This document shows positions 17,501-36,812 of a stretch of 64,000 nt of DNA, one piece after another. The stretch comes from Eledone cirrhosa (lineage: Eukaryota), in contig OZ024746.1 in assembly GCA_964016885.1 (NCBI GenBank), forward strand, positions 80,848,001-80,912,000, written 5' to 3'. The notes beneath the pieces were generated by a model, which had not been told where the DNA came from, searched no databases, and saw nothing but the letters and a program-made list of their open reading frames with translations. Made by a program: the position numbers and the translations under genes. How positions within the stretch are numbered: position 1 is the stretch's first letter; every line of letters begins with the position of its first letter.

Positions 17501-19176
17501 TTTGATAAAATAAAGTACCACTTGCTGTTGTGTGAAGGAATGTGGTTTAGTGGTTAGGGTGTTAGGCTCACAATTGTAAGATTGTGAGTTAAATTCCTGA
17601 GTTGAATGACACTTTATTTCATATTGTTCCAGTCTACTTGACCCCCCCCCCCCCCAAAAAAAAACGAGTTTCAATAAAATGGATGCCAAGCTGTAATGGC
17701 ATTTTCTTTTCCTTTGGACAACATTGGTGGTGTGGAAAGAGGAAACTTGCTCAGGTTTGTGCCTTAAAAAGGCAAACCCATGGTTAGTCTGTTAAGGGTA
17801 CAAATCCAACGGTCAGTTATGATTGAAGGGAGTTTCTTCATCTTCTGTTATTGTTTAGCTCCAGGTCAAGCCCAATCAAGTAGACCTATGGATAAAGGTA
17901 TTCTAGCCATAACCATATTGTCCAATGTACAGGGAAGCCAAACACCATACATACAATGTACTTTTTTAATGATGGAGTGAAGTGTTTAATTAAAAAGGGA
18001 AGAAAACAGTCATTTAGTGCTACTGGAAGTTTTGAAACGAAACATTATATATTTTAAAATGATGCTTTTTGAGACAACACATATCTCTAAATTTGTGATT
18101 AATTAATTTCTGTTATCATAAAATTAATTACTGTTTAAAATTTTTTATTTGTTGCTTAAATTAATTTTCAATTAATTCTGCCCACTGGCAGTTGAACTGT
18201 TACTTCACTGAAAACACATTGATGCAAAAAGGTGATTAAAAGCTTTTATTGAACACTACAAAGCAGAAAAGACTTTAAAAGAATCATAATTTTTTATCTT
18301 TCCAGATTATTTAAAATAATTTAATTTTAATATTTGTATTACTTCACACAAATCACCTGTTTTGCAAATAAAACATTTTCATCTCAACTTACATTGTGCA
18401 CTAAATTTATAACATGAACATTTGAAAGTATCTACCTCATACCTATCTATTGATACATCCATCCAGTCACCCACATATATGTATGTGTGTGTGTGTGTGT
18501 GTGTGTATCAGTAAAAAATAACATGTGTAACTTGTAAAAGACACACAAGCATCAGAAAAGGCAGATTAATGGACAGTTCCTGCTCAGCAGCTGTCTTCTG
18601 AGTCTCCATAGTTTTGGATACTTTAAAGACAGGATTATTCTTCCCAGCACTTGTATAGTTTCTAAAGAAAGAAAGCTATTTAGGATGAAAACACAACAGG
18701 TACTGGACAAGGCAACAATGGTATAGATCAGTTCTTTTCGACTCATTAGTGAGGGAAACAAGACTAAATATTTATATACTCATATGGGACAGGAACATTG
18801 CTACAATCAAATGCAAGAATAATGCAACACACAAATGTAAGAGGAATAGAGAGATTAATACAAGTTAGTTCGAGCTTCAAAACTTATATATGTAATAATT
18901 TTTTTAAATATATATTTGAAAAGAAATAGGATTTCGCTTCAAGCATAGCTTTATACAATATGTATAAATATTTCGTATCTCCAAAGAAATACGGTTTTAG
19001 GAAGCCGTAGCTATGCAAACACCGGGGGGAGGGGCTAACGCCCTCTGGTGATGTCCAGCAGAAACAAAGGGGACAACCGTCTATGCATTTCAGGCTTAAC
19101 TGGCCATCGTCAGGACGGTCCCTCCCACCGCTTGCAAAGTTTTTGACATGAAATTGTGTGTCGAAACAAATATTGT

Positions 19177-20010: not shown

Positions 20011-20404
20011 ATAGTAATAATAATAAAATTGAAAACTAAAATCCAAAGAGGGCTCGATAAGGAAAATATATATCAAATATATAAGAACCGTAGAGCAAAT
20101 ATTTATTAAAATAACAGATTAAAGTTTAAGCAAAGAATCGCTGCTTTCACCCTTAACGGGATCTTCTGAAACTAACAAAGTCAATCTGTAAACGCAGAAG
20201 TGGATATTTCAAAAAACGTTGCAACCGGAGGAAGACAGGAAGACGATACTTTGGTTCGTGGTAACGTTCGCTGGCAAAGAACGGGAAAAAACGAATAATA
20301 CGTCATTAATAGGAGCGGTGAAAAACAATTACGCGCAAAGACAGAACCACGTTCATGGTATAAAAGAGGTCGTAGACTAATGTTCTCTTAGGTGGTGCAT
20401 AGAG
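20011..20404 (-). repeat. 3' pseudo-LTR of the Penelope-like element
   Basis: Direct repeat of 23272-23665 (offset 3261), with about 4 mismatches by eye. Confidence 0.95.
20123..20173 (-). ncRNA. Type I hammerhead-like ribozyme in the pLTR (variant core CAGAAGA)
   Basis: Minus strand: agttt-CAGAAGA-t-ccc-gttaa-ggg-t-GAAA-gca-gcgattctt-tgc-TT-aaact. Stems I (5 bp), II and III all pair. U4 is replaced by A. Confidence 0.7.
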
Positions 20405-21101
20405 ACGTTCTCTGGCAATGAACGAAAAAACGAAGATAATAAGTCATATGTGGAGCGTGGAGAACAATAGCACGCAAAGAGAAAACCACGTAAATGGTAT
20501 AGCAGAAGTCGTAGACTCAAATTCTAACTAGGAGACCAAATGAATCTCCGCTACAGAGTTAAGAACAAAGTAAATAAATACAATACAGAAGTAATAGAAA
20601 CAAATAAATACATACACGCAACCAGATACGTACATACACAAGCATACGCAAAACCTTACCATAGGTATACAAAACCACGCACATATAAATATGTGTGTGT
20701 GTGTATGCTTGTGTACAAATAAATAAATAATTATATAAACGTATATAAGTAAATAAATACGTATATAACAAGCGCACACGCATACCTACATATAAATACA
20801 CGAATGTTCGGAGACGTAAGCCAACTAAAACAAGAAGTACACATATACACACACTCACCATACGTACGAACCTGCATACTCACGCAGACGCAAAACTCCC
20901 GTATACACATAGCCAAACCCTAAGTACCAGAATATGTAAAAATTATACGCCATAACAGTCAAATATACGTACGAGAAGGTATACATACCTTCACAAAACA
21001 TACGGGTAATATATACTTACCTATGCAAATAAGTAAAGGAATAAACAAAACATATACTTAGCTCCCACATCAAGACGTAAAATATCCACGTATAGATCGT
21101 G

Positions 21102-23230
21102 CTATCCGTTGGGGTATAACGTGGGGCTGTAATACAGGAAAGTTTTGTGCAATTTATGTTTACAAGCCGAAATTGCCTCAGATTTTTTGTTTAAGATGTG
21201 GTCACTGGCGTAGAGTATTTCCAGGGCCTCAGCGGCGCAGAGGTCACATGGTCTTTTATTTCCGTTATACGATCTAGCCCTAGCTAGGATCTCCCAGTGT
21301 AACTTATATTGGGTGTGGTTGTCTTTTAGACTCCAGATATAAGCTGAAAGTGACGTCATATTCCTTCTTAGAGGGTAACGAAAAGAATGGGTATGCATGT
21401 AAAGACGCTGCTTGAAACTATTGGCGGTTAACCCTATGTAGGCCCTACGGGACGTGGGTGTTACAACCTTACATTTGTAGACAATGTTACTAGAGAGGCA
21501 TTTCCCGGTTAGAGGGCAATCAGCCCGATTCCTACAATTACAGTTACTACTAACTACAGGGTTGCACGTGTTCCTACGGCTAGGTAGTTTAGCTAAATTT
21601 GAAGCTGTGATGTTATGTGCAAGGTTAGGAGTCGTAGAGTAAGAAATTTTAATAGTATTTCTATTAAAAATGTTACTATATTTATGTGTAGGGGGAAATG
21701 CTTCGTAATAAGGGAAAGAAAGATCTTAGCTAATGGTGTGGCCACCTCCATATTATATGGTGGGTTAAACCAACAAATGCGACGGGATCTATTTCTTCTA
21801 GGTCTATTTTCGTACTCTGTATATGCTACCTTATCGACAAATCCACTTCGAGCAAGAGCTTCATTGTAATAAGTGGAATGGTCGTTGAAAATGCGCTCGT
21901 TGGTGGAAAGACGGGAAAGCCTCAACGAAACGTTTCTTACCAGGTTCTTGGTTATGCTGGCAGGATGGTTGGAATGCTTACTTATGTAATTAAGCGTATC
22001 ATTCGGCTTTCTATACGGGTAATACAACCCATTCAATAAATTGAGGGTAACGTCGAGGTAATTAACGACCGAGAGATTGGCCTCAACCTGTATAGAGAGG
22101 TTGAAGCCTTTAAAGAAGGCTGTGAGTTCTTTTCTGAACCTGTCGCAAGCGCGAGGTCCGCACTTAGTCATGGTCAAAAGACCATCGTCACGGTACAAAC
22201 CACCGCCCGCGTTGGGGAATTCGTCCTTGATAGAGAAAAGAAGGAAAAGGCCAATAAGATCAGTAACCTCCGCAGAGTCACTGGCGCCCATACTCACGTC
22301 GACTGGGGTACTATTGGATTTTTTAATCCAAATAGAGTCGTCGAAATTAATCACCGACTTACGGGCATTAAGGATGACATCAACTTCAAAATCCTTAACC
22401 ACTGTGAGTGTTTTAGCGAAATTGATAGCTCTAAGGAGAAGCGGTAAAGTGATGGAGAAGTAGTAATTGTTGATGTCGAATTGGATAAAACGGCAATGTT
22501 CCTTGTTACATATGCCGTTGAACCAATCAATCACCGCGAAAGAATTGTTCCACAGTGCGAGAGGGGCCAAACTTCTAATTTCAGGTATAATTCTATCAAG
22601 AATCGTTTTACTAAGTCTACCTAAATCGGACTTCGTAGGGTTAATAAGCCGAATAGAGGGGTTGTTCGGAAAATTGTATTTGTGATCCTTCAGGGTAAAG
22701 TGGGGAGAGATAGGGTCCAGAGGTTCGGTCCGGTCCAGGATGTTGAGATCAGATGTGATTTTAAACCCAGCATCGTTGATTTCATTGATGACGCACCGAT
22801 TAGTTTTACGGTAATCCTTAGTTACAGCATTATGTAGTAGTTGATGGTAAGTACTGCGCTCCACTTGATATAGGTTGCCAGTTTTGTCGGAATGGACGTG
22901 CACGGCGTTGGAATCCTTAATAGAACGAATTCTATTCTTCAGGTCTTGCTGGAAGGAATTGCTCCTATTCCGAAATTTGATATTCCGAATGAGTTCCAAG
23001 ACATCATTTTCGAAGGGTAGCAATGCTGGGTTCCACGGAGGGTTATTATAGGTTTTAAATCCAAATTTATCCTGTTTGTTGTCTGCTTTTCGCGGATTAT
23101 CGAAATAAAAGGCACGCCAACGCAACCTTTTAATGAACGCGTCTGTTTTCTGTATCAGGAGTTTTAGGTATGTTTTCCTGCTTTGTACGGGTATGTTCTT
23201 TGTAGAAATATTCAGATGTTGTTTCTGCAT
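21102..23230 (-). CDS. Penelope-like reverse transcriptase / GIY-YIG endonuclease polyprotein (~709 aa if one frameshift at 21691-21695 is corrected)
   Basis: N-terminal 'STKNIP...FIKRLRWRAF'. RT motifs 'FIQFDINNYY', 'MGASDSAEVTDLIG', 'GLYRDDGL' and 'NYLDVTLNL'. After the shift: 'CNCRNRADCPLTGKCLSSNIVYKCKV...AYIGLTANSFKQRLYMHTHSF...CDLCAAE'. Confidence 0.93.
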
Positions 23231-23271
23231 GATGAATATAAGTCAGTAGAGTGCTCAACAGAAGGAGCCAA

Positions 23272-23665
23272 ATAGTACTAATAATTAAATTGAAGACTAA
23301 AATCCAAAGAGGGCTCGATAAGGAAAATATATATCAAATATATAAGAACCGTAGAGCAAATATTTATTAAAATAACAGATTAAAGTTTAAGCAAAGAATC
23401 GCTGCTTTCACCCTTAACGGGATCTTCTGAAACTAACAAAGTCAATCTGTAAACGCAGAACTGGATATTTCAAAAAACGTTGCAACCGGAGGAAGACAGG
23501 AAGACGATACTTTGGTTCGTGGTAACGTTCGCTGGCAAAGAACGGGAAAAAACGAATAATACGTCATTAATAGGAGCGGTGAAAAACAATTACGCGCAAA
23601 GACAGAACCACGTTCATGGTATAAAAGAGGTCGTAGACTAATGTTCTCTTAGGTGGTGCATAGAG
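23272..23665 (-). repeat. 5' pseudo-LTR of the Penelope-like element (second hammerhead copy at 23384-23434)
   Basis: Direct repeat of 20011-20404. Lies ~41 nt upstream of the ORF ATG. Confidence 0.95.
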
Positions 23666-35114: not shown

Positions 35115-35892
<778 letters not shown>

Positions 35893-36064
35893 GATATAGA
35901 TAGGTAAATATACACGGGTGTGTATGATTGTGTATAGAAGATTATATTAATAAGAGGAATTCCAACTTTGTCTGATTTACTCGTTTTATTTACAATCCTT
36001 TAAAATATATATAATGGTATTATAATGAAATAGTATGATAGAATATTAAATTCTAAGTGTTAAT

Positions 36065-36103
36065 TGAACAAGTACTTTCATGCTTTCGCAATCTTCAGGT
36101 TCA
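36065..36103 (-). ncRNA. Minimal type I hammerhead ribozyme (left arm, minus strand)
   Basis: Exact reverse complement of 36195-36233. Confidence 0.85.
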
Positions 36104-36194
36104 TGATATGTGGTGACAGTCGAGTTTGCAATTTTCAACTGTTGAAAATTTTCAACCAGTTGAAAATTGCAAACTCGACTGTCTCCACATATCA

Positions 36195-36233
36195 TGAACC
36201 TGAAGATTGCGAAAGCATGAAAGTACTTGTTCA
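36195..36233 (+). ncRNA. Minimal type I hammerhead ribozyme (right arm, plus strand)
   Basis: tgaac-CTGAAGA-t-tgc-gaaa-gca-t-GAAA-gtac-TT-gttca: 5-bp stem I, canonical core, GNRA-capped stem II, and a 1-bp stem III with palindromic GTAC loop, as in Penelope-associated minimal hammerheads. Confidence 0.85.
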
Positions 36234-36350
36234 ATTAACACTTAGAATTTAATATTCTATCATACTATTTCATTATAATACCATTATATATATTTTAAAG
36301 GATTGTAAATAAAACGAGTAAATCAGACAAAGTTGGAATTCCTCTTATTA

Positions 36351-36435
<85 letters not shown>

Positions 36436-36464
36436 TATATAAACACACACACACATATATATAT

Positions 36465-36812
36465 GGAGGCACATGGTTTAGTGGTTAGAGCATTGGCCTT
36501 GCAATCGAAAGGTTGTGAGTTCAATTCTCAGACCGGGTGATGTGTTGTTTCCTTGAGCAAGACACTTTATTTCACATTGCTCCAGTTTACTCAGCTGTAG
36601 AAATAAAATGATAGGGACTGGGATCCATATCATTCCACTGCAAAGTGGTCGTGGAGGTGCCACGGCAAAAAAAAGCGCCCAGCACTCACTGTAAATGAGG
36701 TTGGTGTTAGGAAGGGCATCCAGCTGTAGAAATCAAGCCAGAATCAGTTCCTGTTCCACCCTTGCAAGCAGGGAAAAAGTGGACGTAAAATGAAATGATG
36801 AAATGAATGAAT
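36465..36812 (+). mobile_element. SINE family B, full length
   Basis: Reverse-complement match to 7551-7895 and 42757-43102. Confidence 0.9.

Follow-up and report, generated by a model that had tools for sequence, protein, structure and literature searches.

How did a 413-bp palindrome come to carry a hammerhead ribozyme motif on each of its strands? The question arose at one locus in the window, the 64,000-nucleotide stretch of DNA analysed here. With moderate confidence, we read the palindrome as a head-to-head pair of pLTRs of a Penelope-like element (PLE). Both were likely produced in a single insertion, the RT-endonuclease of the element having likely made two copies of one RNA.

Geometry of the palindrome

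The inverted repeat is centred on 36149, and its pairing ends at 35943/36355. Of 205 position pairs, 201 match; the four mismatches are three at the centre and a single one at 36114/36184. The initial annotation had described a near-perfect palindrome between two TA tracts with one outward-facing hammerhead per strand, and each part of this description holds (Table 1); the core C of the motif lies at 36200 on the plus strand and at 36098 on the minus strand. It had also called the palindrome spacer-less, which needs correction in that the centre holds a 15-nt insert. This insert consists of two short segments from the beginning of the arm, with a strand switch at an AATT palindrome, whereas 546 other loci have a simple one-base centre. 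A read-through transcript is predicted to fold, as had been proposed, into a hairpin of ~200 bp (predicted MFE -322.8 kcal/mol).

The two halves of the palindrome are asymmetric. The left arm runs on for ~50 nt into a 'tail', which the right arm lacks; the far end of this tail is the distal end point of the insertion and a putative RT priming site. Both flanks are (TA)n, masking any target-site duplication, and TA microhomology is present at both ends, including that between the right arm and its flank. To the right of the palindrome lies a tRNA-like SINE (36466-36800, plus strand), which we take to resemble octopus SINEs. Elsewhere in the window, a TA-rich microsatellite tract of 2.8 kb occupies 9795-12626.

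Table 1. Features of the palindrome and its flanks, in window coordinates.
Feature	Position	Strand	Basis or remark
(TA)n tract, left flank, likely target	35118..35902		TRF
50-nt 'tail', start of the element's internal body, on one arm only	35892..35942	-	leads into the ORF in full-length copy L082
Left arm, tailed pLTR copy	35943..36141	-	98.5% identity to 5' pLTR + tail of L082
Type I hammerhead motif, predicted cut 36070/36069	36065..36103	-	motif sequence
Junction insert, two pLTR-start pieces in alternating orientation	36142..36156		sequence
Right arm, tailless pLTR copy, proximal end point	36157..36355	+	98% identity to 3' pLTR of L082
Type I hammerhead motif, predicted cut 36228/36229	36195..36233	+	motif sequence
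(TA)n tract, right flank	36351..36441		TRF

The parent element

With one arm as query, the source genome (3.0 Gb) yielded 54 scored matches; immediately before several of these copies come the last part of an RT/GIY-YIG ORF and a 3' UTR. Judged by sequence, the arm is the pLTR of a ~4.2-kb PLE that encodes RT and GIY-YIG. Two copies, L082 and L083, have the arm at both ends, 4.2 kb apart. In the full-length copy L082, a pLTR and its tail are followed by ORF segments of 476, 260 and 524 codons split by frameshifts, then by a 3' UTR and a second pLTR that lacks the tail. The period is 4.2 kb, and next to this copy lies an inverted one that is 5'-truncated. Frameshifts or stops interrupt the RT/GIY-YIG ORFs of the copies read. 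The Penelope link and the origin from inverted pLTRs that had been suggested for the palindrome are thus supported, by an ORF-bearing PLE family and by arms 98-98.5% identical to the pLTRs of L082.

Pfam matches of the parent element to RVT_1 (E 1e-4) and GIY-YIG (E 3e-4) are weak and both below the cut-off; Atlas neighbours are RT/GIY-YIG clusters at 0.96-0.97. As in canonical EN+ PLEs, RT is followed by a C-terminal GIY-YIG endonuclease with a CCHH motif, and the ORF is flanked by pLTRs bearing the hammerhead motif. A CX4CxxC finger precedes the C-terminal GIY-YIG. The sections of Craig et al. (2021; PMC8557442) drawn on here assign a CX2-5CxxC finger in this position to Neptune and Nematis, and by this motif the family points to one of these two clades.

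The initial annotation had found the arm unlike the window's own PLE. This is borne out: the parent element has no blastn or tblastn match at 21102-23242. The element there belongs to another family and spans ~20020-23665 on the minus strand, with RT/GIY-YIG-like ORF pieces at 21593-23242 and 21102-21725, direct repeats near 20020-20400 and 23285-23665, and a hammerhead-like stretch that reads CAGAAGA rather than CUGAAGA.

At two places in the parent family (L008:1501 and L082:5257-5266), pLTR starts abut the GIY-YIG region, at its middle or its end, without a change of orientation. This suggests template jumps from the RNA 5' end.

The hammerhead motifs

Each motif has a 5-bp helix I, the core CUGAAGA, U10.1-U11.1, a 3-bp helix II with a GAAA loop, and a helix III formed by the palindrome AGUACU. 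Core positions C3-A9 and G12-A14, A15.1-U16.1, H17 and helices I and II are all those of a type I hammerhead, and the dimer-type architecture that had been anticipated is supported. In its type I topology, its conserved core and a small palindromic helix III that would favour dimers, the motif resembles the min-HHRs described in the available text of PMC4209133. It differs from them in having U10.1-U11.1 in place of the conserved G10.1-C11.1, a 3-bp helix II and U at position 17, and the earlier label 'canonical' therefore does not stand. A U-U at 10.1-11.1 is listed as a tolerated natural variant in the relevant part of PMC3088659. A search with hammerhead models, which the initial annotation had proposed, returned no Rfam hammerhead match at gathering nor at E<=10.

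Small type I motifs of this sort are described as inactive as monomers and weak as dimers (PMC4209133, in the portion consulted). For the present motif, the monomer with helix III closed is predicted to be unstable (+0.3 kcal/mol), the helix III duplex is predicted at -6.6 kcal/mol, and helix I has a predicted probability of 0.01 in the 250-nt arm RNA. Because a single read-through transcript would hold only one sense motif plus its antisense, it could not form the dimer in cis. Self-cleavage of transcripts started at the centre, another earlier proposal, is also doubtful: the palindrome lacks the TATA and CCAAT motifs, which are located upstream of the pLTR, and each such transcript would carry a single sense hammerhead, which depends on a second copy to form helix III. 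The hammerheads in the palindrome would be passengers from the pLTR. No selection on the hammerhead core was seen among the copies, dead copies being a weak test.

Further motifs occur in the window. One at 19066-19121 on the minus strand (core at 19113) has the same layout in unrelated sequence, with U-U at 10.1/11.1, a 3-bp helix II, a palindromic helix III and a 7-bp helix I; it is probably a remnant of another PLE family. Matches to CUGAUGA...GAAA at 5969 (-), 27419 (+), 7303 (+), 34247 (-) and 51054 (-) failed the helix test and are possibly decayed PLE hammerheads.

A fixed centre across the genome

The initial annotation had proposed to count copies of the arm genome-wide, and they prove numerous: the hammerhead 34-mer has 5,492 exact copies (reversed control, 0), and 834 fold-back junctions lie at the same point as in the window palindrome. 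An identical 29-nt centre is shared by 546 of the 834. The first 100 hammerhead matches include 25 neighbour pairs closer than 6 kb, at distances from 92 bp to 4 kb; 22 are head-to-head, 3 tandem and none tail-to-tail. Palindromes reach 8.7 kb in a single size series, with the 413-bp form at its short end.

The common centre coincides with a candidate start site. The first 23-mer of the pLTR has 4,985 copies, but only 1,331 show exact continuation into the sequence 13 nt upstream, an exact-match count that undercounts somewhat. Of 22 contiguous copies, 20 have a TATA-like box that starts 33 nt above the first A, and 21 have at least one of the CCAAT motifs at about -95 and -132. The fold-back centres lie ~32 nt downstream of the TATA box. 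From this spacing we infer that transcription starts at the first bases of the pLTR. Among 25 loci whose centre played no part in their selection (some were chosen as pairs, and the sample is not random), both arms begin at the pLTR start in 16 and both run upstream of it in 9; mixed loci number 0/25.

Self-priming on an antisense RNA template has been proposed, in the passages of Arkhipova et al. (2013; PMC3846280) on rotifer Penelope, for head-to-head junction palindromes, and it would generate a head-to-head repeat here as well. The centre, however, fits sense-strand TATA/initiator geometry, the outer ends match the sense-strand RT start sites given in the pages of Frangieh et al. (2024; PMC11167929) that we draw on, and the single tail per insertion described below is left unexplained. 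We regard this route as quite improbable.

As a candidate for a sharp 5' end of the template, the hammerhead cut site was rejected, since no sharp hotspot is present. Junction-type matches number 33 at the cut (background 3) versus 42 one base downstream, with 12 and 17, many of these being small deletions, at two other positions; fold-backs number 11 at the cut site versus 834 at the pLTR start. There may be a broad, mild excess of junctions around the cut. A lone case compatible with a ribozyme-cut template is L126 (G000:C1:21871700-21881000), an 8.7-kb palindrome of two near-full-length copies with one outer tail, centred at about the cut site.

One tail per insertion

Tails were scored by a motif test that separates them from TA runs. 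Across two sets of loci, a tail is present at exactly one outer end in 114 of 120 two-ended insertions. The first set comprised 127 loci including the window locus, which has its tail on the left only; 68 were two-ended head-to-head insertions, with one tail in 67 and none in 1, and the other 59 showed ends on one side only. The held-out set comprised 60 loci, of which 8 with a short arm were set aside; the 52 with two full arms gave one tail in 47, both tails in 1 and none in 4. Two of these four tailless exceptions have an arm broken just before its end, and one retains a stub of 9 nt of the tail. Most tailless ends (91/100) lead into TA runs.

A separate observation concerns (CT)n or (CTAT)n runs, found after 32 of 106 tailed ends versus 0 of 100 tailless ends. 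Either RT slippage that seeds microsatellites or a subfamily with a run of this kind in its body could account for them.

The two arms of a locus share their alleles. Arm-arm divergence is 1.8% and 1.9% in the two sets, versus 4.4% and 4.3% between loci, and the arms are discordant at only 18/275 and 25/464 subfamily-diagnostic cells, versus 45% and 38% between loci. Private variants common to both arms number 13, and 62 are on one arm only. No arm-specific alleles separating tailed from tailless arms were seen.

These data bear on the model first put forward for this locus, in which an independent, non-coding mobile palindrome with hammerheads on either strand spreads whole. An identical centre at 546 loci is what such an element would leave. 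The hammerhead stretch also holds 0 of 12 polymorphic columns, a result expected in ~8% of cases by chance and at loci partly picked by these motifs. However, 15 of 49 centres are not of the one-base form and spread over 12 other types, single subfamilies contain both orientations of the centre relative to the tail, arm-specific alleles are missing, no promoter lies inside, the size series is continuous up to 8.7 kb, and catalytic-core columns are no better conserved than the rest (2.5% vs 1.6%). This model is highly improbable. Because the centres vary and tailed and tailless arms have no arm-specific alleles, the pattern fits de novo formation of palindromes at each insertion, with no spread of a palindromic unit. 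The descriptions 'ribozyme-only fold-back element' and 'ambisense ribozyme unit' are accordingly not supported for a sequence whose arm is the pLTR of an ORF-bearing PLE and which has no inherited centre.

The main rival to our reading is a single cDNA that snaps back: primed at the tail, it would fold at the RNA 5' end, copy itself and be captured by the far end of the target through TA microhomology at +199. Such a route accounts directly for the single tail and the shared alleles. It would also produce short partner arms and the nested mini-inversions at centres, including that of the window locus; short partner arms occur at 20 of 49 loci in the first set, where 15 of the 20 are 16-31 nt long, and at 8 of 60 in the held-out set. 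Yet it predicts that the arm retaining the central A is always the tailed one, and the counts are 10/21 and 25/47; over these 68 loci, neither arm is favoured as the holder of the central base (35:33). The commonest centre would require a one-base hairpin loop. Where the partner arm is short, moreover, 11 of the 20 long arms have no tail, so that a tailless arm does not require a full tailed partner. On balance we find the snap-back route unlikely.

Reads, editing and small RNA

Four DNA runs were inspected over L082:5330-6040. They show loose TA ends at 5988 (34 contigs) and at 6037 (30 contigs, and also 255 and 241 reads). Contig depth rises at the pLTR start in two contig runs, from 59,207 to 295,484 and from 62 to 151, figures that are not copy number; the step was not seen in RAD reads. 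No strand-switch joint at the centre is listed in the RAD-seq reads and contigs over this interval, as would be the case if the fold-backs came from sequencing or assembly. Against this stand arms that differ by 1.8-1.9% within a locus, ends that are asymmetric by rule, centres fixed in position and varied in sequence, both 3' end points recovered as loose TA ends in independent runs, and the rise in contig depth at the pLTR start. The chance that the palindrome is an artefact is close to negligible.

Among rare variants in 182 arms from 121 loci, there was no excess of A>G as a mark of A-to-I editing: A>G occurs 28 times on 69 A columns and T>C 22 times on 59 T columns, with 3 of each common to both arms. 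As the initial annotation had proposed, the predicted hairpin may be a substrate of ADAR or Dicer. In Drosophila, siRNA from Penelope inverted repeats is already described in the part of PMC3681739 consulted.

Discussion

Our reading that one RNA is copied twice can be set out as four steps. RNA would start at the first bases of the pLTR, ~32 nt below the TATA box. The endonuclease would cut both strands of a (TA)n target. One strand would prime at the end of the pLTR (+199) and the other 50 nt further on (+250), which leaves the tail; both sites have TA microhomology to the target. Both cDNAs would then reach the RNA 5' end, and template jumping or microhomology end joining would link their 3' ends. 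The resulting palindrome has no upstream promoter; it is probably dead on arrival. It may retain some internal promoter activity, because the D. virilis Penelope promoter is internal and TATA-less according to the portion of PMC2377424 consulted.

Parts of this scheme have precedents in vitro. The available text on the anole PLE protein reports that it cuts and extends both strands, that RT starts at two internal sites bounding the tail, that uncleaved RNA is the preferred template and that the protein is predicted to dimerise (PMC11167929). We infer the coupling of the two priming sites to the two strands, because in the same text the start site is the same for both strands and no RNA-target homology is reported. 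A fuller version, in which a dimeric RT-endonuclease uses one RNA, the strands cut at TA are primed 50 nt apart and the insertion is built from both ends inward, is offered tentatively.

Three observations could be turned against the reading we prefer. Short partner arms imply that synthesis ran from the centre outward, as would also happen with a single snapped-back cDNA. The A/T symmetry of the central base could come from a non-templated A on a single cDNA. The shared alleles could result from later gene conversion between the arms.

The palindromes resemble published EN+ PLE insertion units. In the sections of Craig et al. (2021; PMC8557442) and Arkhipova et al. (2013; PMC3846280) available to us, such a unit consists of a pLTR, an adjacent inverted 5'-truncated copy and an optional tail of 30-40 bp at one end, and an adjacent inverted copy at the 5' end and a tail at one end are also found here. 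Shared features further include head-to-head inverted pLTRs, a microsatellite target, junction palindromes and TATA/Inr-like motifs near the pLTR start. The present loci differ in that both units are pLTR only and the tail measures ~50 nt; at least 834 of them have their centre at the same point to within a few bases, and the single tail has been counted (114/120).

With PAc, the Poseidon element of the green anole, the family shares two internal RT start sites bounding the tail, an AT-rich target and the use of mainly uncleaved RNA as template (Frangieh et al., 2024; PMC11167929, in the parts drawn on). Unlike PAc, it has a Neptune/Nematis-type zinc finger, which by motif marks a different clade, TA microhomology to the target at both end points, and an ORF that begins after the tail and not inside the hammerhead. 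Non-LTR retrozymes, in the portion of their description used here (bioRxiv 10.64898/2026.07.22.740005), are likewise non-coding, pLTR-derived and equipped with type I hammerheads. They form head-to-tail arrays with at least 2 sense hammerheads per transcript, whereas in the palindrome the two copies are inverted and each strand holds a single sense motif.

Inverted pLTRs, tails and opposite-strand hammerhead pairs are already published (PMC8557442, PMC4209133, in the parts consulted), the latter as Schistosoma min-HHR pairs 100-700 bp apart on opposite strands (PMC4209133). Our study adds their regularity: the fixed centre, the counted single tail, the alleles shared between arms and the 35:33 split of the central base. 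Our literature search found no report of a centre fixed at the start site or of a counted one-tail rule. The available sections of PMC8557442 and PMC3846280 name the origin of inverted pLTRs and of the one-sided tail as unresolved, and those of PMC11167929 leave the later steps of PLE insertion unvalidated.

The palindrome itself is an ordinary by-product of Penelope, and its value is that of a mechanistic test set. Hundreds of minimal, nearly identical products yield sharp predictions for the start site, the two coupled priming sites and the junction sequence, as they would apply to an RNA of 250 nt in vitro. If priming on both strands is correct, inverted pLTRs, the single tail and the head-to-head polarity would all follow from it with no need for an antisense template. 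The palindromes would then be frozen 'strong-stop' products that reveal the PLE insertion mechanism. Such priming would also have left more than 800 latent dsRNA hairpins of ~200 bp in this genome. If transcribed through, these fold-back loci would constitute a large candidate stock of dsRNA substrates.
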